Positions 2,341-40,924 of a stretch of DNA of 64,000 nt are shown piece after piece. The DNA is taken from NCBI RefSeq assembly GCF_056712565.1, contig NZ_CM160072.1. The stretch is one strand, 5' to 3'. Made by a program: the position numbers and the translations under genes. The notes under the pieces are model-generated. The model was not told where the DNA came from. It ran no database searches and was given only the letters and a program-made list of their open reading frames with translations. The stretch's first letter is position 1. Each line of letters begins with the position of its first letter.

Positions 2341-4563
2341 TTGGCTGTTCAATTCGCTTATCCGTGGAACGTCCCACGGTCGGCAATCTCCAGCCCATAC
2401 CTTACTTATGAGCAACAGCATCGCCGCGACCGTATGTTCGCGGCTTTGCTGCATGCAAAAAAGGTGCTTTCTCTCCAGCCCGACTGCGTGCGGTTAGATG
2501 TTTATCGCACTGCTGCGGTGCTGGAGCAAAATCAGGGTAGTCAACGAGCCAATGCATTTTTAATCAGCTTCTGCAAAAAGGCATTGCCGCGTCTTGAACT
2601 GGTCGCAAAAAAATACGAATGCGCTGGTATCAACAGCAAGGTATCAACCGCTGTTTTTGGAAGTCATTTTGATACTCAGCAAATGCAATATCTGTCGTCA
2701 CGCATGGTTAATATGGTCGCCCGATATAACCGTCTCCCGGACATGTCGCGCGCTGATGTTGACCTGTTGGCCGCTGATATTGCTAATTTCATTCGTGGTG
2801 AACTTGCCAACATTAATGACCACGGATTCGGCGAGCTTAAAACGCTGTACACCTGGTATATTCGTGCTGGCTTTATTTCCCTCCAATTCAACGTTATCCC
2901 ACCACATTGGGAGCGGGTTGAAAAAAAATATGTCGGTGCGGATGAAATCGCACCGGCTATCGCCAAAATGTTTAACGATGGGTGGTGGCGCGGTCGTTTG
3001 CGCCGTGTAGCAGCTACGTGGCGCGAACACCTGCAAATTGCAGTCGGCAACGTCAGTAAGAAAAAAAACACTTACGCGAGTAAAAACTGCGTGACTGACT
3101 GGCGTGAACAAAAGCGCCGCACTCGTGAATTTCTCAAAGGTCTGGATCTCGAAGACGAAGACGGCAACCGTATCAGCCTAATTGAAAAATATGATGGCTC
3201 AGTTGCTAACCCTGCGATTCGCCGCTGTGAGCTCATGACCCGCATTCGTGGGTTTGAAAACATCTGTAATGAGCTCGGTTATGTCGGTGAGTTTTACACT
3301 CTAACCGCGCCGTCAAAATATCACGCCACGACTAAAGCCGGTTACCGTAACAGCAAATGGAGCGGTGCCAGCCCGGCTGACACGCAAAACTATCTAACCG
3401 GTATCTGGGCGCGTATCCGTGCCAAACTACATCGGGAAGATGTCCGTATTTTCGGTATTCGTGTCGCCGAGCCCCATCACGACGGCACTCCACACTGGCA
3501 CATGCTGATGTTCATGCTGCCGGAAGATGTTGAATATGTTCGCTCCATCGTCCGTAAATACGCATGGAAAGAAGACCGCCACGAACTGAAAAGCGATAAA
3601 TCCAAAAAAGCACGTTTCCACGCGGAGTCCATTGACCCGGAGAAAGGCAGCGCAACCGGCTATGTTGCTAAATACATTTCAAAAAATATCGACGGTTATG
3701 CTCTCGATGGTGAAACCGATGATGAAAGCGGTGAGCTGCTGAAAGAGACAGCCCCCGCCGTTTCAGCATGGGCTGCGCGCTGGCACATCCGTCAGTTTCA
3801 GTTTATTGGTGGTGCGCCGGTGACGGTTTACCGTGAGTTGCGTCGCCTCGCTGATACCGAAACCGCGCACGGTCTGAGCGTTGAGTTTGCCGCCGTCCAT
3901 GATGCCGCCGACGCTGGTGACTGGGCTGGTTATGTTAATGCTCAGGGTGGGCCGTTTGTCCGTCGCGATGATTTACAGGTGCGCACACTGTATGAACCGC
4001 GTACCGAGCTTAATCAGTACGGTGAGGAAACGGTATGTATTAAGGGGGTCTACGATTCCTCCATAGGTGCAGGAAGCCCGATTTTAACCCGGCTCACTCA
4101 GTGGAAGATTGTTCCGAAGCGTGCTGTTGATTTGCCCGTTGACCTTCAGGACGGCAAAGCCGTCCCTCGGAGTTCTGTCAATAACTGTACGGGAAGCGAA
4201 AGCGATCCACCGATACTGGATTTAACAAAACCACTGAGTCGGCGTGAAAGACGAGAATTGACCAACCGACTCAGGAAGCAAAAGCCAGCAGCACGGCGAA
4301 AATTCATCCACGGAACGGATGAGCAAAACGCAGCTATAGCTAAAACTATCGATGAGATACATCTGACAACCGGCATTAATATCAGCCGGGGCGAAGCCCT
4401 GCACCTGATGGCCGGTGGTAAAAGTTGTTTTGATGGTAAATGGCTACGCGGAACGGCCAAAGGAGAAATATTTTCCGCAGCACCATCGCATGAGGCTAAA
4501 GCTCGGAAAATCCTTAATCGTGTTGCGGCGATGGCTGAAGCATTAAAACCAATACATGAGTAA
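2341..4563 (+). CDS. A: replication initiation endonuclease (P2 gpA family, rolling-circle initiator)
   Basis: 740-aa ORF (TTG start in track; true start may be downstream ATG); motifs PHWHMLMF and YVAKYISKN (active-site Tyr region) as in gpA. Confidence 0.8.
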   Translation: MAVQFAYPWNVPRSAISSPYLTYEQQHRRDRMFAALLHAKKVLSLQPDCVRLDVYRTAAVLEQNQGSQRANAFLISFCKKALPRLELVAKKYECAGINSKVSTAVFGSHFDTQQMQYLSSRMVNMVARYNRLPDMSRADVDLLAADIANFIRGELANINDHGFGELKTLYTWYIRAGFISLQFNVIPPHWERVEKKYVGADEIAPAIAKMFNDGWWRGRLRRVAATWREHLQIAVGNVSKKKNTYASKNCVTDWREQKRRTREFLKGLDLEDEDGNRISLIEKYDGSVANPAIRRCELMTRIRGFENICNELGYVGEFYTLTAPSKYHATTKAGYRNSKWSGASPADTQNYLTGIWARIRAKLHREDVRIFGIRVAEPHHDGTPHWHMLMFMLPEDVEYVRSIVRKYAWKEDRHELKSDKSKKARFHAESIDPEKGSATGYVAKYISKNIDGYALDGETDDESGELLKETAPAVSAWAARWHIRQFQFIGGAPVTVYRELRRLADTETAHGLSVEFAAVHDAADAGDWAGYVNAQGGPFVRRDDLQVRTLYEPRTELNQYGEETVCIKGVYDSSIGAGSPILTRLTQWKIVPKRAVDLPVDLQDGKAVPRSSVNNCTGSESDPPILDLTKPLSRRERRELTNRLRKQKPAARRKFIHGTDEQNAAIAKTIDEIHLTTGINISRGEALHLMAGGKSCFDGKWLRGTAKGEIFSAAPSHEAKARKILNRVAAMAEALKPIHE

Positions 4564-4637
4564 TTCATATCCATATCATGCACATACAGCAATCGCTCTA
4601 TTCGTTTTTTTTCTTCCCATCTTTTGCCAATACGTGC

Positions 4638-4657
4638 TACTGTATAAATATACAGTA
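4638..4657. promoter_or_regulatory. LexA (SOS) box overlapping sigma70 promoter for tum/dinI-like operon
   Basis: TACTGTATAAATATACAGTA = CTGT-N8-ACAG palindrome; -35 TTGCCA (4625-4630) and -10 TATAAAT inside the box; RBS GGGAGGGAT then ATG 4677. Confidence 0.6.
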
Positions 4658-4676
4658 ACCCTATGGGAGGGATTTC

Positions 4677-4859
4677 ATGGTTGGCGAACATTTCAGCCGA
4701 ACGCAGCAAAAGTGGGCTTGTGTGCAATTTATTGCCGAGGTATCTCTGATTGCAAACTGCAAGCCATCAGACTTAAAGCTCGCGCTCACTCTCATTGCAG
4801 ACCTAGCAAACAGCGAAAATAACGAAACCGAAGATGATAATTTTTATAAGGCTGATTAG
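4677..4859 (+). CDS. Tum-like N-terminal segment (putative antirepressor part), ends at in-frame TAG
   Basis: 60-aa ORF directly downstream of LexA box; TAG 4857-4859 then ATT then ATG 4863 in the same frame. Confidence 0.4.
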   Translation: MVGEHFSRTQQKWACVQFIAEVSLIANCKPSDLKLALTLIADLANSENNETEDDNFYKAD

Positions 4860-4862
4860 ATT

Positions 4863-5093
4863 ATGAGAATCAATATCACGTTGGATAAAGAGCAAAAATT
4901 AGGGCAACAGATCATTGATGCTTTTCAGAATGAAATAACACATCGAGTACAATGCGTTTTTCCTGCAACAAAAGTTAACGTTAAGAAAGGGTCAATGACT
5001 GGTGTAGAGGCTATCGGATTCGATAAAGAGGCGGACAGAGAAACATTAGGCAGCATATTACAAGAGATTTGGGAAGACGATAGCTGGCGTTAA
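4863..5093 (+). CDS. DinI-family protein (Tum C-terminal domain-like)
   Basis: 76 aa MRINITLDKEQKLGQQIIDAFQNEITHRVQCVFP...LGSILQEIWEDDSWR matches DinI pattern (MRIEVTIAK...ISEILQETWESADDW) from memory. Confidence 0.6.
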   Translation: MRINITLDKEQKLGQQIIDAFQNEITHRVQCVFPATKVNVKKGSMTGVEAIGFDKEADRETLGSILQEIWEDDSWR

Positions 5094-5126
5094 ACATAAT
5101 AACCGTGCTGGCGCAAAAACTAGCTT

Positions 5127-5163
5127 TTTGCGTCGGCGGGGTTGAGTAACGAGCCCACGAGGC
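5127..5163. repeat. copy 1 of ~32-bp imperfect direct repeat (GGCGGGGTTGAnnAACGAGCnCnCGAGGC)
   Basis: cggcggggttgagtaacgagcccacgaggc here vs tggcgggggttgaacaacgagcaccgcgaggc at 5539-5570. Confidence 0.5.
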
Positions 5164-5292
5164 TTAAGTCCTGCCTTTCAAAATTTCTCAATGTGCTATT
5201 GATGACACGCCCATGATTAATGAGGCATGACCTGAGATGGTTTTATAGTGGCGTTTTGACGGCACTGATTAAAATTCATTGAGGGTGATAAT

Positions 5293-5502
5293 ATGCATCG
5301 ACTACCAGGTGAAATACCGCAGCACAAAACTAAAAGCATCAAACTGATGGCCATCGTTCATCGTTTGCAGCAGATAATGGTCAATGAGAATTTGACACCC
5401 GCAGAGCTGGTCGGGTGTGCCGAAATAGTCAGGGATAATTACGGCAAGCTGGATAGCATCAGCAGGTCGAAACAATACGCACCACCACCACGTCGACGAT
5501 AG
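5293..5502 (+). CDS. hypothetical small protein (69 aa)
   Basis: ORF with RBS GAGGGTGATAAT before ATG; flanked by the two direct repeats. Confidence 0.4.
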   Translation: MHRLPGEIPQHKTKSIKLMAIVHRLQQIMVNENLTPAELVGCAEIVRDNYGKLDSISRSKQYAPPPRRR

Positions 5503-5530
5503 CAAACGCCGCCGGTTCTGAAACTCGCTT

Positions 5531-5573
5531 TCAGTACTGGCGGGGGTTGAACAACGAGCACCGCGAGGCGTTA
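5531..5573. repeat. copy 2 of ~32-bp imperfect direct repeat
   Basis: See copy 1; both copies preceded by a short hairpin (CGCAAAAA..TTTTTGCG at 5117-5137; CTGAAA..TTTCAG at 5519-5534). Confidence 0.5.
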
Positions 5574-5576
5574 GCA

Positions 5577-6518
5577 TTAATTTATTTTTAATGAATGGTA
5601 ATCTCGTGAGTTGACCGAAGATTTGAGATAACTGCAATCATTAACCGACAGTATTGCCGCTAATAGGCGACATACCAGTGCCTGCATTTGCAGCAATATA
5701 TCGTTACCATATTGACTGTTGTTAACACTTGAGAAACCAAGCGGTTGACCAAAAAAAATAGCCTCATGAAAATTATCATTGCGGATGCCAGAAATGTTTT
5801 TTTTACCTGACACCCATGTGGGGATTGATAACCCATAAATTTTGCACATCCACTTTAATCGCTTGTAATGATTTGGCGGTTTTTTATCAGGAGCCTTGTC
5901 ATGCTCAGCCCACGACAAAGCAAAGCACCCATCAAGTGCCATGTAAAGATACTGGAATTTTTCAAAAGAAAGGTATTGTGGGTTTTGAGATAAGAATAGT
6001 GCATGCACCACTGCCGCAATTCTTTTGGGGGAGTGCGCATCCTTATGTTTGCCATTTATATAATTAAGAGCCAGTTCTATGACTTCTTTTTCAGAGCATC
6101 CAACGAGAATAAAGTCGGTTAACTTAGTGGGCTTGATAGTGGTTGCATCTAAAAAACCAGCGTCAGTGGTTGTCAATCTTATTCCCTTGAAAAAAGAAAG
6201 GCACCACACAATAAAGTTGAGAGTTTCTAACGAGGATGTATTTTTTAATTTTAGTGTGTGCGTTTTGGGCATACTGAATACTCGGTGACTATAAGGCATT
6301 GTGGATATGCCACCATTAAGGTTATATACATCTTGGTTTCCAGGGTATATCCAACCTTTCACAACGTTTTTATCATTATTAACACGCTCCACTTTCTCAT
6401 TGAGACCAGGTAAAGTAAGCAAAGAAAATTGTTCAGTCTCAATGTTAACTTCTACTGGATAGTATCCAAACTCCGACATAATCTCATTGGGTTGCTGTTC
6501 GTCAACTTCACCTTGCAT
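5577..6518 (-). CDS. hypothetical cargo protein, 313 aa, with RNxxxH motif (possible HEPN-like)
   Basis: AT-rich ORF unlike flanking phage DNA; motif GIRNDNFHEAIFF (R-x4-H) near C-terminus; no other recognisable domain. Confidence 0.6.
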   Translation of the reverse strand: MQGEVDEQQPNEIMSEFGYYPVEVNIETEQFSLLTLPGLNEKVERVNNDKNVVKGWIYPGNQDVYNLNGGISTMPYSHRVFSMPKTHTLKLKNTSSLETLNFIVWCLSFFKGIRLTTTDAGFLDATTIKPTKLTDFILVGCSEKEVIELALNYINGKHKDAHSPKRIAAVVHALFLSQNPQYLSFEKFQYLYMALDGCFALSWAEHDKAPDKKPPNHYKRLKWMCKIYGLSIPTWVSGKKNISGIRNDNFHEAIFFGQPLGFSSVNNSQYGNDILLQMQALVCRLLAAILSVNDCSYLKSSVNSRDYHSLKIN

Positions 6519-6541
6519 ATCTTTCTCCGTTCAAAAATAGG

Positions 6542-6557
6542 CTCGATAATTATCGAG
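6542..6557. promoter_or_regulatory. perfect 16-bp palindrome upstream of the 313-aa gene (candidate operator)
   Basis: CTCGATAATTATCGAG, 24-39 bp upstream of start codon at 6518 on reverse strand. Confidence 0.35.
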
Positions 6558-6755
6558 AGGCTATCATGTTTGGAAAGAACCAATGTCCGTAATTTTTGTA
6601 AATTTAAGGTGATTTATCAATAAATAAGCTGTGCATGCAACAGGTGCATGGTTCTGCATGCGCCGGGGTTACCCGTTTTGTACGTGCGCCGCAAGAGCTG
6701 GCGGGGATCCAGAGTGGTCATGCAACTGCATTAAAACCGCCCCATAAAGCGGGCA

Positions 6756-6774
6756 GGCGTGGCGGGGAAAGCAT
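6756..6774. other. cos: cos cohesive-end sequence, 186 type
   Basis: GGCGTGGCGGGGAAAGCAT equals the 19-nt 186 cohesive end as recalled (P2 GGCGAGGCGGGGAAAGCAC); in GC-rich non-coding stretch between A-side cargo and portal gene. Confidence 0.6.
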
Positions 6775-6993
6775 TGCGCGTCAGCAGTGATGCGTAATAA
6801 TAAAAATTATCCTCTGAGCGCGTCGTGATGGCGCTGTCGTGGTCGCTGCTGGTTCGTTGGTGGTCGGGTGTGTTCGTGCGCGTGAGACGCATCTGATGCG
6901 TGATGGTGGTGTGCATGGAAAAGCCACCAGGAGCAGCGGCTTTACAGGAGTGGCAGGATTCAAACTGCTAATTATGTTTCTACTATGATTAAA

Positions 6994-7998
6994 CTAATTT
7001 ACATGTATGTAGAGTTCACCGTCGCCAGACCAATCGGGACACTCTAAAACAAGCCCAAACTGCTTGAATATTTCATCAATGATTATTGTTATCTCCCGAA
7101 AATCACCAAAACCTGTAATGTGCTGGTCATTAAACTTCCCATAAAGATTCTGAAAAGCAATGCCTAATTCTGATAATTGATATCTTATCTTTGAGTTGGA
7201 TAGTGTAAGGGATAGCTTTGGATCGTATTCTTTAATATTGATGTTTAGAGAATGGACATAACCCATCGCATAAGCATAAGAGTTGATGATTAGCCTGATA
7301 CGTTTTTTTACTTCGAGATACATGTCATTCAGAGAAATATTACCGTACTTATAACCCCAGATGAGTTTTTCAATCTCGTCAGATACTTCATTTACAACAG
7401 TGTCAAGATTCTCTAAAAATAAATCGATAGTTTCTTGAGGGGCAGACCCCGAAGACATGTAATTAGCGAGATATTCAGACCATGCACGCGTGGCTGAGAT
7501 AAGAAGCGCGCTACCATACTCGTTGACTGTAAAGTTTTGGGCTAAGCATGTTAGTAAGTTTTTTTCATGTACGTGCACTAATTCATGGTGAATGCGATGG
7601 ATGACTGCGAGGTATCCTTCTTCTTTCAGTTTTAAGAAGCTACCATCATTGAAAAGCTCAACAAAAAAATCAATCGATAGCACAAGGGTATATTCTTCAC
7701 ATAGCCCATCATTGCCAATTTTTGTTACTAACTGCCCGACGGCTGCGCCCTGTTTACTATTGGTAAATGAACTAGGGGATTTGTGTTGGTAAGAGGATGT
7801 TACCTTTTGAAGAGCTTCACTGAAGTTATAGGAAACAATCACGCATTTTAATTTGGAGATATCAAGATTGAGATTTTTTGTTAAAGCTCGGATAGCTTCT
7901 AGTGTGAAATTACCGATATTATTTGCTTCTTGCTCAGTAGCGAAACCTTCGAGGGTTATTTTAAAATCAGTTTCCAAAATATTAATCTCCGCGCCCAT
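6994..7998 (-). CDS. hypothetical cargo protein, 334 aa, HExxH...E zinc-metallopeptidase-like motif
   Basis: AT-rich ORF between cos and portal gene; HELVH with Glu 22 residues after first His (gluzincin-like spacing). Confidence 0.6.
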   Translation of the reverse strand: MGAEINILETDFKITLEGFATEQEANNIGNFTLEAIRALTKNLNLDISKLKCVIVSYNFSEALQKVTSSYQHKSPSSFTNSKQGAAVGQLVTKIGNDGLCEEYTLVLSIDFFVELFNDGSFLKLKEEGYLAVIHRIHHELVHVHEKNLLTCLAQNFTVNEYGSALLISATRAWSEYLANYMSSGSAPQETIDLFLENLDTVVNEVSDEIEKLIWGYKYGNISLNDMYLEVKKRIRLIINSYAYAMGYVHSLNINIKEYDPKLSLTLSNSKIRYQLSELGIAFQNLYGKFNDQHITGFGDFREITIIIDEIFKQFGLVLECPDWSGDGELYIHVN

Positions 7999-8016
7999 TG
8001 TTTTGATATTCGATGC

Positions 8017-8045
8017 ACTATAGCTTTCGCAGATTGCATCTTCAA
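8017..8045 (-). promoter_or_regulatory. putative sigma70 promoter for the HExxH gene
   Basis: Reverse strand TTGAAG -17 bp- TATAGT about 20 nt upstream of ATG at 7998. Confidence 0.3.
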
Positions 8046-8075
8046 TAATGAGCGCAGAGATTGTGGCGGCCTAAG

Positions 8076-9122
8076 TTATTCTGGGTTGTCGAGGGTGTAC
8101 TCTTTGAATCTGATGACCTCCATGCCGAGCCAGTCATTTACCTCCCTGAACCTGTCCTGTAGCGGCGACAGCTCGTTGCGCACAAATACCTTTGCCACCT
8201 TCTCAACATCACCGAGTGAACCGATATTCTCGGGCTTGCCGCCCATGAGCTGGAACGGTACGCGGTGCGCGTCCATCAGATCGGCGGCACTGGCCTTCTT
8301 GATGTTGAAAAAGTCATCCTTTGTGGCGACCTCGCTCAGTGGCACGATTTTGATGCCGTCCGGTTTTCCGCCGGGAGCGTAGAAAAACAGGTTCTTAAAG
8401 TTGCCGAGCCCTTTTGAGTTGCGCATCGCCTCGCGCAGCGATTCGACGTCGGTCGCGCTCTGCGCCGGGTCAGTCACATACATGATGTAACCCGCGTGCG
8501 CGCCGTTCTGATAATACTTGCGGCGGAACAGCGTCGCGGATTCATTCAGCCAGGCGGAATTTAGCGCGCTGAGATATTCGGGCAGGCCGTAAATCTCCTG
8601 ATTAATGTCGGGCTCCAGCAGGTGAAACACGGTATCAGGCGCGAACTCGTGCGGCTGGGTGAAGTTTTCCACAAACCAGAAAATCGAATCGTCGACTCCG
8701 CGTCGGGTGTATTTGGCTGGCGAGGCCAGCAGTTTGATTAACTGGCCGGTGACGCTGTGGCGCTGCTCAAGAAAGGCGTTACCGAACACCAGATAATCGA
8801 GCGCAAAGCGGCTGAAATCCTGACGGGATAACAACGGGTGCGGAATGTAGGTGCTCGCGAGCACGTTACGCTTAACATAAATTGGCGAGCTGTGATGCAC
8901 GGCAGAGCGCAGGCTCTTTGCCAGCCCTGAGAAGCTGACCGGCGGCTCGTACCATTTGCCGTTACTGATGCACTCGACGTAATCCAGAATGTCGCGCTTA
9001 TCGAGTACCGGCACCGGCTCGCCGAAGGTGAACGCTGTCGTTTTTGGCGGTGCGCTGGCGGTCAGTTGTTGTGGTTTGCTGGCCTTTTGTGCGTTGGCTT
9101 TACGGGATTTTTGTTTACCCAT
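8076..9122 (-). CDS. Q: capsid portal protein (P2 gpQ family)
   Basis: 348 aa, size/position as P2 Q, immediately downstream of terminase on reverse strand. Confidence 0.8.
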   Translation of the reverse strand: MGKQKSRKANAQKASKPQQLTASAPPKTTAFTFGEPVPVLDKRDILDYVECISNGKWYEPPVSFSGLAKSLRSAVHHSSPIYVKRNVLASTYIPHPLLSRQDFSRFALDYLVFGNAFLEQRHSVTGQLIKLLASPAKYTRRGVDDSIFWFVENFTQPHEFAPDTVFHLLEPDINQEIYGLPEYLSALNSAWLNESATLFRRKYYQNGAHAGYIMYVTDPAQSATDVESLREAMRNSKGLGNFKNLFFYAPGGKPDGIKIVPLSEVATKDDFFNIKKASAADLMDAHRVPFQLMGGKPENIGSLGDVEKVAKVFVRNELSPLQDRFREVNDWLGMEVIRFKEYTLDNPE

Positions 9123-9123
9123 T

Positions 9124-10893
9124 TTAGTTGAACTCCAGAATAGATTTAGGCTGCATGCCGCTACCGGCAGAAAGCGGTTCGTTTAACAGGGCGTGCATGG
9201 TCGCCCATGCGATATCGGCGTGGCTGGCTTCCTCGGTGCGGCTGGCCTCATAGGTGGCGCTGCGCCCGCTGCTGGTCATGGTTTTGCGGATGGACATAAA
9301 CGACTGCGTGACGTCGGTTGCTCCGGCGTCGTACTCCAGACAGCCACGGCGAATGGTGTCTTTCGCCTTGAGTACCATTGCGGTTTTCATTTCAGGTGTG
9401 TAACGGATGCCGCGTGCCGCCGGGTAAAATGAGCGCACCAGCTGGAACACGCCGAGACCGAGGCCGGTTGCGTCAATGCCGATGTATTCGACGTTGTATT
9501 TCTCGGTCAGCTTGCGGATGCCCTCTGCCTGTGCTGCAAAATCCATGCCCTTCCACTGGTGGCGCTCCAGCATGCGGAACTTGCCACCAGAGACCACCGG
9601 CGGCGCGAGCACGACGCACCCGGCACTGTCGCCGGTGTGTGACGGGTCGTAGCCAATCCAGACAGGACGAGAGCCGAACGGATGGTCGGCGAACGGGGCA
9701 AAGTCCTCCCATTCCTCCATCACATCGACCATGCAGCGCTGCAGCTCCTCGAACGGGAATACCGACGCTTTATCGTCGACAAACTCGCACATAAACAGGT
9801 TCTTAAAGTCCTCATCACTGTTTTCGCGTTTGAGCTGGTCGAGGTCGAACAGGGTGCAGCCACCCGCAAGGGCGTCCTCAATGGTGACAATCTGCCGCCA
9901 CTGGCCATCGTCGCAGAGCTGGCCACCGGCGAGCGCGCTGTGACTGATGTCGATTTCGATGCGGTCGGCAATCCGGCTGCGCCCCTTGTTGAACAGCTCG
10001 CCAGACCAGAAGGGGTAAGCGCCGTGCGCCAGCGTGGAAGGTGTCGAAAAATAGGTCGAGCGCAGGTGCTTTTGCGAGGCCATGCCCGAGGCGACTTTGC
10101 GCAGTTTCTGAAAATTCGGGATCCAGAATATTTCATCGACATACAGATCGCCGTTATGGCTCTGCGCGGTGTTGGAATTGGTACCGAGAAAAATCAGTTT
10201 TGCGCCGTTGTTACCGATGACAATCGGGTCGCCAGTCAGGTCAACGTCGACCAGTCGCGCAAACTGGATGATGTATTCGCGGAACACGTAAGCCTGCGTT
10301 TTACTGGCTGATAAAAATATCTGGTTATGGCCGGTTTTGAGTACGCGCAGCAGTGCCTCGCGGGAGAAATAGAATGTCGCGCCAATCTGGCGGGATTTGA
10401 GAATGTCACGAATACGGTGCTCCAGTCCTGCGCGGTACCACTGCAACTGGTACTCGAAAGACTGGTCGAAAAATAATTCCTCTAGTTTATCGATAGCCTC
10501 GTCGCTGAAAAAATTCTTTTTCGGCTTTTTGCGCTCCCCTTTGTTGCGGTTGGCGACGTTGGGGTTAAGGTCGGCTTCGTTGCCGGTCTGGCTGTAGCGG
10601 TTGACTCGCGCCAACCGTTCAATCTGCCGTCCGAGCAGGTCAATCTCTTTGAAATCACCCCCTGTCTTTTGCGGCTTGGCGATGAGCTGAATCAGCCTAG
10701 CCTCAAGGCTGCTTTCAACGCGGGAAATCGGCGCGATGCCGTCCCAGCCGTCGCGCTGCTTCCAGCTCTGCACGGTCGGGCGCTTGACCTGCAGCATTTC
10801 GGCAATCTGTGGCACGGAAAAACCCTGCCAGTAAAGCAGCGATGCCTGCCGTCGCGGGTCATGCAACAAGGTTGTATCGGTGGAAATGGTCAT
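9124..10893 (-). CDS. P: terminase large (ATPase) subunit (P2 gpP family)
   Basis: 589 aa, size/order as P2 P. Confidence 0.8.
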   Translation of the reverse strand: MTISTDTTLLHDPRRQASLLYWQGFSVPQIAEMLQVKRPTVQSWKQRDGWDGIAPISRVESSLEARLIQLIAKPQKTGGDFKEIDLLGRQIERLARVNRYSQTGNEADLNPNVANRNKGERKKPKKNFFSDEAIDKLEELFFDQSFEYQLQWYRAGLEHRIRDILKSRQIGATFYFSREALLRVLKTGHNQIFLSASKTQAYVFREYIIQFARLVDVDLTGDPIVIGNNGAKLIFLGTNSNTAQSHNGDLYVDEIFWIPNFQKLRKVASGMASQKHLRSTYFSTPSTLAHGAYPFWSGELFNKGRSRIADRIEIDISHSALAGGQLCDDGQWRQIVTIEDALAGGCTLFDLDQLKRENSDEDFKNLFMCEFVDDKASVFPFEELQRCMVDVMEEWEDFAPFADHPFGSRPVWIGYDPSHTGDSAGCVVLAPPVVSGGKFRMLERHQWKGMDFAAQAEGIRKLTEKYNVEYIGIDATGLGLGVFQLVRSFYPAARGIRYTPEMKTAMVLKAKDTIRRGCLEYDAGATDVTQSFMSIRKTMTSSGRSATYEASRTEEASHADIAWATMHALLNEPLSAGSGMQPKSILEFN

Positions 10894-16853: not shown

Positions 16854-16880
16854 AGGCTGGATAAACACCAGCCTTGATTT
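16854..16880. terminator. hairpin between convergent S and HIT-family gene (bidirectional terminator candidate)
   Basis: GGCTGG-ataaacac-CAGCC followed by T-rich run. Confidence 0.4.
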
Positions 16881-17524
16881 TATAGTTTGAAATCTGCGTA
16901 ATTATCAATAACCTCTAGAACACCGCTGATGTTGTTATCTCTGCGCCAATTCCAATTGCCATGTATCAAATTTGCATTAGAATAAAGATATCTAAGGAAC
17001 TGAGATGGTAAGAGTGGTTTGTTGCATAAAAATTCATCATAACTATTACTCATATACCACACATATCCATTTTTAATGTCAAAACTTAAATTCTCACCTT
17101 CAATTTTCTTAAAGTTAATTTCTTTATTTAGAGCATTTTCAAACTCTTGTGTATAATAAACACAGTGTATATGAGCGTGAGAAATGCACCCTCCTGAACG
17201 ATCTATATTTTCACCTGCTCCGCTTTCAAAGAAAATTAGAGATCTACCAGATTGGTGGATTATAAATTCATTAAGTTCTCGCAGAATCTCCTTGCCATTA
17301 CTCCGGGTATCTCGATCAAGAGCAGCAAAGGAGTTGATATGCCGCTTAGGAATCAGCATCACATGCGAATTATTTAGCGGGCCAATACTAGGTACAATTA
17401 GAAAATCATTTGTTTCTGCAATGATATTTTTCTTGTCATTTACGATTTCATCGTATCCTTTGATAAGGCTAATGCCATTTATTTCATCGCATATTCCACA
17501 GAACGAATTACAAGAATTATTCAC
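16880..17524 (-). CDS. HIT-family (histidine triad) protein with ~80-aa C-terminal extension; cargo gene
   Basis: CNSFCGICDE, NSHVMLIPKRHI and histidine triad HAHIHCV; AT-rich. Confidence 0.7.
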   Translation of the reverse strand: MNNSCNSFCGICDEINGISLIKGYDEIVNDKKNIIAETNDFLIVPSIGPLNNSHVMLIPKRHINSFAALDRDTRSNGKEILRELNEFIIHQSGRSLIFFESGAGENIDRSGGCISHAHIHCVYYTQEFENALNKEINFKKIEGENLSFDIKNGYVWYMSNSYDEFLCNKPLLPSQFLRYLYSNANLIHGNWNWRRDNNISGVLEVIDNYADFKL

Positions 17525-18089
17525 GTTTATTGTCTCCTGGTTTTTTAGGGAGCAATTTTTCAGCCCAAGATGCGAGTCGGCTTAGAACTAAGTCTGAAAA
17601 ATATCCTAATATAAAACAAATCGAGAATGCAATTTTGGTCTTACCATGCCCTTTAATGGAGGATACAAACGTATCCGGAGATAATATCGTATAAGAACAA
17701 AAAGCCACTAAAGCAGCTAAGAACGGAATAAAAATCCTCCAGTAGAACTTATGGGATTCCCAAGGGAAATTATACTGATTGTTTTTCCCTCTAGCAGTTA
17801 CTCTATAAAACCATTTTGCATTATACACCCACCCTCCAAAAAAACCACCAAGAATAGAAAACAAAGATATTTTATTATTATATGACAGCTCAAAAACAAA
17901 TTGAAAAAGAAAGGCGAGAATGCAACCTATTACAAAAAGAACTATTAAATAAGCAAATTCGAATTTTATTTGTTCACAATCGTTATTAAAATAAGGCACA
18001 ACCTCATCATCGCCTAAGGTTTTTTTTCTTTCAGTCATTTGCCAAACACCTTCATTTTTTACTGTGAGCCAGGGTAATTGCATATTCAA
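17517..18089 (-). CDS. small integral membrane protein (about 4 TM helices); cargo gene, overlaps HIT gene by 8 nt
   Basis: Hydrophobic stretches YLIVLFVIGCILAFLFQFVF, ISLFSILGGFFGGWVY, IFIPFLAALVAFCSYTIL, IAFSICFILGYFSDLVL; AT-rich. Confidence 0.65.
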   Translation of the reverse strand: MNMQLPWLTVKNEGVWQMTERKKTLGDDEVVPYFNNDCEQIKFEFAYLIVLFVIGCILAFLFQFVFELSYNNKISLFSILGGFFGGWVYNAKWFYRVTARGKNNQYNFPWESHKFYWRIFIPFLAALVAFCSYTILSPDTFVSSIKGHGKTKIAFSICFILGYFSDLVLSRLASWAEKLLPKKPGDNKRE

Positions 18090-40561: not shown

Positions 40562-40924
40562 GGGGCTGATTCTGGATTCGACGGGATTTGCGAAACCCAA
40601 GGTGCATGCCGAGGGGCGGTTGGCCTCGTAAAAAGCCGCAAAAAATAGTCGCAAACGACGAAAACTACGCTTTAGCAGCTTAATAACCTGCTTAGAGCCC
40701 TCTCTCCCTAGCCTCCGCTCTTAGGACGGGGATCAAGAGAGGTCAAACCCAAAAGAGATCGCGTGGAAGCCCTGCCTGGGGTTGAAGCGTTAAAACTTAA
40801 TCAGGCTAGTTTGTTAGTGGCGTGTCCGTCCGCAGCTGGCAAGCGAATGTAAAGACTGACTAAGCATGTAGTACCGAGGATGTAGGAATTTCGGACGCGG
40901 GTTCAACTCCCGCCAGCTCCACCA
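40562..40924 (+). ncRNA. ssrA: tmRNA (transfer-messenger RNA)
   Basis: Starts GGGGCTGATTCTGGATTCGACGGG, contains tag ORF region (GCAAACGACGAAAACTACGCTTTAGCAGCTTAA), ends GGGTTCAACTCCCGCCAGCTCCACCA; 363 nt. Confidence 0.9.

Follow-up and report, generated by a model that had tools for sequence, protein, structure and literature searches.

Two AT-rich single-gene cargo cassettes flanking cos in a 186/P2-type Escherichia coli prophage: a likely HEPN ribonuclease and a likely zincin protease

Two cargo genes on either side of the cos site

This analysis concerns two neighbouring genes within a 64,000-nucleotide stretch of contig NZ_CM160072.1 (NCBI RefSeq assembly GCF_056712565.1; the whole stretch is called the window, and coordinates are counted from its first nucleotide). 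Approximately 1–29 kb of the window constitute a 186/P2-type prophage of Escherichia coli, displaying near-complete identity to phage vB_EcoM-613R3 and to prophages of E. coli SF-468, MS15052 and APEC E18055. Two open reading frames (ORFs) are encoded on the reverse strand between replication gene A (2341–4563, plus strand) and portal gene Q (8076–9122, minus strand): one of 313 amino acids (aa) at 5577–6518, a homologue of ‘ORF313’ of phage P2-EC67 (AM157369) and given that name here, and one of 334 aa at 6994–7998, termed HExxH-334. Coordinates, lengths, AT-richness and placement between A and the portal gene, as given in a preliminary description made from the nucleotide sequence, were all confirmed. 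GC content was 0.385 for ORF313 and 0.375 for HExxH-334, compared with 0.507, 0.557 and 0.569 for gene A, Q and terminase gene P (9124–10893, minus strand), respectively. A 186-type cos site of 19 nucleotides (GGCGTGGCGGGGAAAGCAT; 6756–6774, plus strand; two mismatches relative to P2 cos, chance expectation 0.04) is situated between the two genes. The same description had placed a GC-rich cos region in this spot; cos is indeed there, while the 475-bp spacer has a GC content of just 0.49 overall with a peak of ~ 0.54, and is therefore GC-rich only relative to the two cargo genes.

Both ORFs represent real genes rather than chance reading frames, since homologues are numerous (398 for ORF313 and 78 for HExxH-334 at E ≤ 0.001, best E-values ~ 1e-200) and dN/dS ratios (nonsynonymous to synonymous substitution rates) of 0.19–0.32 between alleles reflect purifying selection. 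Phage P2 itself holds tin and old in the cos-proximal gpA–gpQ hotspot, and the locus is this known cargo hotspot in a 186/P2-type prophage. The hotspot next to cos is an established reservoir of anti-phage genes (Rousset et al. 2022, PMC9122126; Vassallo et al. 2022, PMC9519451), and DUF4238 is a validated single-gene defence found in it (Rousset et al. 2022, PMC9122126). A same-locus comparison showed both genes to be absent from most related prophages, in agreement with the accessory cargo status proposed earlier.

Independent segregation of the two cassettes

Alignment with related prophages delimited each gene separately. When JKHS016 and PKF8, which carry the HExxH-334 gene without ORF313, were compared by blastn, only window positions 4001–5575 and 6627/6631–9500 were matched; the ORF313 cassette (5576–6630) is the block replaced in such prophages, which keep both flanks and lack the gene. 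The HExxH cassette (6943–8075) is a clean 1,133-bp segment reaching from the cos region to the stop codon of the portal gene. A Salmonella prophage (L033) that is collinear in other respects lacks this segment, and its matches to window positions 4004–6942 and 8076–9064 lie 10 bp apart. What remains between the cassettes is a conserved cos region (6631–6942) common to prophages with either, both or neither of the cargo genes, and on these alignments it is the recombination hinge of both cassettes.

Co-occurrence was surveyed across 5,426 complete E. coli genomes. Alleles of ORF313 were present in 92 of them and the HExxH-334 gene in 25; both genes were found together in 16 genomes, HExxH-334 only in nine and ORF313 only in 76. 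The 2,422-bp query spanning both genes was matched in 398 E. coli genomes, an excess over 92 and 25 that is presumably due to the cos spacer, and the breakpoint at ~ 6631 recurred in this survey. The 16 double carriers come from varied hosts and are joined by phage vB_EcoM-613R3, which, along with the adjacency, common orientation and AT-richness of the two genes, would favour a genuine two-gene system, as proposed in the preliminary description. In one such system, for example, the metalloprotease could activate or control a HEPN toxin by cleavage, or one protein could act as sensor and the other as effector. However, the 16 genomes, which fully cover the two-gene query, are 99.5–100% identical to one another and represent a single prophage lineage, and therefore one evolutionary event.

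Carriers of one gene only also argue against a two-gene system. In all nine genomes with HExxH-334 alone the match starts at window position 6631, comprising cos and the HExxH-334 gene. Conversely, in strains 602354 and 4/0, which are of the P2-EC67 type and encode DUF2158 and ORF226, and in the sequence type 131 (ST131) strain S65EC, where a CapP-like peptidase is encoded along with a membrane protein, ORF313 is followed directly by cos and Q. The alleles in Salmonella are uncoupled as well: an ORF313 allele with 96% identity adjoins Q and has no HExxH-334 neighbour, and HExxH-334 alleles with 93% and 90% identity have other cargo across cos and no ORF313 neighbour. Outside P2 phages, each gene stands alone with varying neighbours, and neither adjoins the other in the loci sampled. 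Each gene occurs far more often alone than with the other, and the two are listed as separate systems in the catalogue of Rousset et al.

The arrangement of the pair is operon-like to the extent that the genes are co-oriented, but the intervening 475 bp contain cos, terminator-like sites and a separate sigma-70-like promoter match upstream of ORF313 (TTGATA-17-AAAAAT, 6592–6620, minus strand), all signal-like sites here being consensus-scan matches and as such weak evidence. One further point in favour of a two-gene system is that ORF313 lies near a different zincin, the CapP-like M78 peptidase, in ST131 prophages. A recurrent pairing of ORF313 with zincins was considered and rejected: among its other partners, neither ORF226 in P2-EC67 nor a 199-aa membrane protein is a peptidase, and the pairing does not hold generally. 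On this evidence a true two-gene system is very improbable.

The preliminary proposal of a two-gene module was consequently abandoned, and we conclude with high confidence that ORF313 and HExxH-334 represent single-gene cassettes that are independent of each other. They would have come to lie side by side by recombination through the cos region that they share, so that their adjacency across cos, which is tempting to misread as functional coupling, reflects modular recombination. With other hotspot cargo they share the position next to cos, AT-richness, variability and single-gene format, the HExxH cassette lying between cos and Q, and ORF313 between A and cos.

The ST131 arrangement is of separate interest. 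In ST131 prophages, as in that of S65EC (L008, 3161–4312), ORF313 occurs together with a CapP-like M78 peptidase of 161 aa (PADLOC capP, E 1e-30) and the membrane protein of 199 aa, and no CapH-type helix-turn-helix (HTH) partner was obvious. Table S5A of Rousset et al. repeatedly gives this arrangement as ‘Peptidase_M78 + hypothetical + hypothetical’.

ORF313: a HEPN-like domain behind an alpha/beta half

ORF313 belongs to PHROG 5937, and its homologues (305–330 aa) were found in Enterobacterales, Aeromonas, Pseudomonas, Acinetobacter and Stenotrophomonas. The protein is conserved over its full length, the N-terminal half equally. The motif RNDNFH pointed out in the preliminary description (R246–H251; 5766–5783, minus strand) is of the Rx4H HEPN type and is followed by an invariant E252. 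Residues R246, N247, H251 and E252 were invariant in 38 diverse homologues (45–88% identity), and the spacing of R246 and H251 agrees with the Rx4-6H signature of HEPN RNases, enzymes that act independently of metal through a composite site formed by a dimer.

The predicted structure consists of an N-terminal alpha/beta domain and a C-terminal HEPN-like helical domain. Best structural matches of the C-terminal half, all with modest scores, were AbiV, the HEPN domain of AbiA, HepT and the HEPN domain of Csm6, which have the conserved Rx4-6H motif in common with ORF313. Motif and model together point to ORF313 being a likely HEPN RNase, in which RNDNFH is probably catalytic. A profile search against Protein Data Bank (PDB) sequences returned the N-terminus of ribonucleotide reductase R2 (E ~ 0.01), a chance-level match that was rejected.

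Functionally, the nearest known analogue of ORF313 is ApeA, reportedly described by Gao et al. in 2020. ApeA is a single protein whose RNxxxH HEPN domain is controlled by a ligand pocket and cuts either phage RNA or the anticodon loops of tRNA; it is ~ 600 aa long, is built of N, Mid and split-HEPN domains and assembles into decamers (10.64898/2026.01.26.701840, 10.64898/2026.03.20.713152). Both are encoded by a single gene and have a non-catalytic N-terminal part, and in each the HEPN domain that follows at the C-terminus bears an RNxxxH motif (RNKITH in Ec1ApeA, RNDNFH in ORF313), which suggests the same logic, namely a ligand-sensing domain controlling a dimeric HEPN RNase. By this analogy, ORF313 is probably a stand-alone, ApeA-like sensor-RNase. 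Unlike ApeA, it is half the size and has an alpha/beta rather than an all-helical N-terminal domain. Membership of the ApeA family was rejected on size, architecture and the lack of any match to the PADLOC ApeA or Pfam HEPN_Apea models; since ApeA is twice as large and differently built, ORF313 may work like it without being a member. The UniRef label ‘Apea-like HEPN’ carried by one ORF313 relative (P0115) could not be reproduced with Pfam.

HExxH-334: a gluzincin-like fold

HExxH-334 belongs to PHROG 11743. Its 78 close homologues are chiefly from P2-like prophages of Enterobacterales, being very common in Salmonella, with chromosomal copies in Shewanella, Psychromonas and Kosakonia. A profile search extended the family to 355 representative clusters, chiefly of 300–340 aa. 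The HELVH motif, likewise noted in the preliminary description (H138–H142; 7573–7587, minus strand), is part of an invariant block: H137, H138, E139, H142, E145, N147 and the stretch W173-S-E-Y176 did not vary among 33 homologues, the most distant of which share 41% identity. HELVH is probably catalytic, and E175 (codon 7474–7476, minus strand), located within the second stretch on helix 160–185 of the model, is a candidate third zinc ligand as judged from its conservation and its place on this helix.

The AlphaFold2 model was confident (predicted local distance difference test score 90.7, predicted template modelling score 0.90) and contains, in order, a mixed sheet, the HExxH helix (126–148), a long helix bearing E175 and a helical C-terminal domain, which amounts to a zincin fold, probably of the gluzincin type. 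A Foldseek search of the AlphaFold database, one of the checks suggested with the preliminary description, recovered the full-length fold (template modelling score ~ 0.8) in many uncharacterised ~ 320-aa proteins of Proteobacteria and Firmicutes, a few of which bear the labels ‘Peptidase M48’ or ‘ImmA/IrrE’. The same fold makes up one half of ~ 700-aa DUF4238 proteins. In addition, sequence relatives of HExxH-334 (P0262, P0324) are fused, in proteins of ~ 600 aa, to DUF2971, which matches the PADLOC candidate PDC-S31. One of these fusions keeps the sequence HHELAH; P0262 has arginine in place of the first HExxH histidine, and this copy may be catalytically dead.

Gluzincins (the M1 catalytic domain, thermolysin M4, collagenase M9, M30 and M48 BepA) and the M78 proteins ImmA, IrrE and CapP likewise combine the zincin fold with an HExxH helix and a conserved glutamate on the next helix. 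HExxH-334 differs from them in showing no profile match, in its distinct C-terminal helical domain and in the DUF4238 and DUF2971 fusions seen elsewhere, and it is not accompanied by a neighbouring HTH repressor such as that of ImmA or CapP. On motif and model, HExxH-334 is likely a zinc protease, specifically a cytoplasmic metallopeptidase of the gluzincin type. Matches to FliD and galactokinase in a PDB-sequence profile search were at chance level and were rejected.

Lit, an HExxH protease of prophage e14, aborts infection, its characteristic activity being cleavage of EF-Tu triggered by a phage peptide. As a prophage-encoded, cytoplasmic HExxH zinc protease (Peptidase U49) of ~ 300 aa specified by a single gene, it resembles HExxH-334, and the local motifs are alike (HHEISHV in Lit, HHELVHV in HExxH-334). 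Homology to Lit was nevertheless rejected: hhalign against E. coli K-12 Lit aligned only a 19-residue stretch at the motif, with a probability of 5%, and there was no match to Pfam U49.

Catalogues, neighbourhoods and the case for an anti-phage role

Both proteins have already been catalogued. In Table S5B of Rousset et al., the ORF313 family is single-protein system #11 (218 occurrences) and the exact 334-aa sequence is single-protein system #76 (51 occurrences), with the Pfam column empty in both cases; the exact cargo arrangement of the window appears in Table S5A. Neither protein sequence is in Table S2, which holds the tested systems. DefensePredictor (Science 2026) assigned the ORF313 allele WP_001161722.1 a log-odds score of 9.68 (cut-off 4), with the label ‘Predicted novel defense gene’, and this allele was not found in the accessible part of the list of tested constructs. 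Accession-number searches of main texts gave no matches.

Several neighbourhoods of the two families involve defence genes. An ORF313 homologue stands alone beside Gabija in an island of P. aeruginosa, and in Acinetobacter seifertii (L025, 3907–5957) an ORF313 homologue is immediately preceded, on the same strand, by a DUF4238 gene; homologues in Aeromonas and Stenotrophomonas occupy variable genomic spots. Distant homologues of HExxH-334 adjoin Wadjet JetABCD, a type IIG restriction enzyme in an integrase island, and a NERD gene. DUF4238 hence adjoins the ORF313 family and is also fused to the HExxH-334 fold. This may be fortuitous or point to an island niche that the two families share.

Some observations weigh against reading the two proteins as a HEPN RNase and a zinc protease with anti-phage functions. 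ORF313 had no Pfam match at E ≤ 10, nor did 38 family members at E ≤ 0.1, and it matched no NCBIfam or PADLOC model, including those for HEPN and ApeA; its structural model is poor at residues 251–261, beginning at the motif histidine. HExxH-334 was equally without Pfam, NCBIfam or PADLOC matches, including the Lit and M78 models. Profile searches with 10–38 relatives of both proteins against these three collections gave no matches, and PHROGs placed both in families of unknown function only. The earlier statement that neither gene matches tin, old or any named family thus held, and PADLOC, whose use had been suggested, matched neither protein to a known defence family; by the same searches, neither is similar to Tin or Old, nor to any validated hotspot system. 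The defence-island neighbourhoods of both families were sampled in a handful of loci (~ ten). Finally, a consensus scan of the 77-bp gap between Q and the HExxH-334 gene detected a sigma-70-like promoter match (TTGAAG-17-TATAGT, 8017–8045, minus strand; consensus only) and no terminator-like site, so read-through from the late P–Q operon is possible, and HExxH-334 could be expressed in lytic growth, serving the phage rather than the lysogen.

The last point opens the alternative that one or both genes act in the lytic cycle or in counter-defence, for instance through a late-expressed protease destroying host defence or stress proteins. The location of HExxH-334 77 bp after Q on the same strand is consistent with this, and phage hotspots are known to carry anti-defence genes too. 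On the other hand, HEPN toxins typically belong to immunity on the host side, both families are found in non-phage chromosomal islands beside defence genes, and DefensePredictor scores the ORF313 allele as defensive. The HExxH module, moreover, is fused to DUF4238, a validated defence (Rousset et al.), and also to the PADLOC candidate PDC-S31. We consider a phage-serving role unlikely.

Alternatively, the genes could be addiction or otherwise selfish modules, or lysogenic-conversion factors, with ORF313 as a toxin paired with an unrecognised antitoxin and the protease acting on host physiology or virulence. Toxin-type enzymatic domains in both products would suit such roles. No conserved small neighbour gene or partner accompanies ORF313 across the sampled contexts, however, and a candidate antitoxin, a convergent 69-aa ORF at 5293–5502 (plus strand; PHROG 11386, function unknown), was rejected, being retained in prophages where ORF313 is absent. 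No obvious signal peptide or membrane segment was seen when the two protein sequences were read by eye. This explanation is rather improbable, and defence of the lysogen is preferred for both genes, with about an even chance of being correct for each.

Other features of the window

Between gene A and the cargo, a tum-like ORF (4677–4859, plus strand; labelled ‘UV induction of prophage’ in ON470592) and a DinI-like gene (4863–5093, plus strand; PHROG 189) form a 186-type SOS-induction module (4677–5093). Two small ORFs in the spacer, of 51 aa (6635–6790, plus strand) and 61 aa (6731–6916, minus strand), are given as hypothetical proteins by RefSeq and GenBank; since they overlap the conserved cos region and cos itself, they are probably artefacts of annotation. 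No Rfam families or tRNAs were found in the locus, and repeats around it were short and chance-like.

Further along the prophage, an ORF of 160 aa with apparent membrane segments overlaps one encoding a 214-aa HIT-family protein (16880–17999, minus strand). The pair is opposite in strand to the tail and baseplate genes and sits between baseplate gene V and a virion morphogenesis gene; it looks like another cargo insertion, for which PADLOC gave no match. Outside the prophage, the tmRNA gene ssrA is located at 40562–40924 (plus strand), with the host genes rplS to smpB lying between ssrA and the prophage. Past ssrA the DNA appears unlike that of strain SF-468, pointing to an ssrA-linked island distinct from the prophage.

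Discussion

The hotspot, its logic and the catalogue entries of both proteins are already known, and ORF313 had been computationally predicted to be defensive. The present analysis adds an identity at domain level for each protein, the fusion partners found for the protease module, and precise limits for the cassettes. As single-gene prophage cargo with toxin-type enzymatic domains, both genes are sensible candidates rather than surprises.

In proposing how the two proteins operate, we infer their enzymatic activities, anti-phage roles, triggers and targets. ORF313, a small cytoplasmic protein, would form a homodimer with a composite HEPN site, its N-terminal alpha/beta half probably being a sensor or autoinhibitory domain that would hold the enzyme off until an infection cue arrives. 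Once triggered, cleavage of RNA (tRNA, mRNA or phage RNA) would stop replication of the superinfecting phage, making ORF313 a half-size functional analogue of ApeA. HExxH-334 would be a stand-alone, protease-based exclusion gene whose product, like Lit, cuts a host or phage protein upon infection, with the C-terminal helical domain probably gating or targeting the protease. In this way, both proteins would protect the lysogen from other phages.

The fold assignments, HEPN for ORF313 and zincin for HExxH-334, are well favoured on the structural models. The combined reading of independent cassettes, these two folds and anti-phage roles is held with modest confidence, somewhat on the favourable side, because it joins a cassette independence of which we are rather sure and folds that are probable to defensive roles that stand near evens. 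A broader extension is offered tentatively and is more doubtful than any of these parts: HExxH-334 may represent a widespread, unnamed family of Lit-like cytoplasmic zinc proteases active in immunity against phages, alone or with DUF4238 or DUF2971, and ORF313 a minimal, ~ 310-aa family of ApeA-like HEPN sensor-RNases spread across Gammaproteobacteria.

Many entries of the gpA–gpQ hotspot remain uncharacterised, and two of them, #11 and #76 of Rousset et al., now gain testable identities, candidate catalytic residues and exact cassette boundaries. If this broader extension is true, a single prophage holds two new single-gene immune proteins flanking its packaging site. ORF313, if confirmed, would be among the smallest immune proteins to combine a sensor with a HEPN domain and would be useful for understanding compact infection sensing. 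Confirmation of HExxH-334 would bring a broad protease family into a defence class now represented mainly by Lit, and the DUF4238 fusions could help explain how that validated but mechanistically unknown system works; on the broader extension, the family would give a first mechanistic handle on DUF4238.

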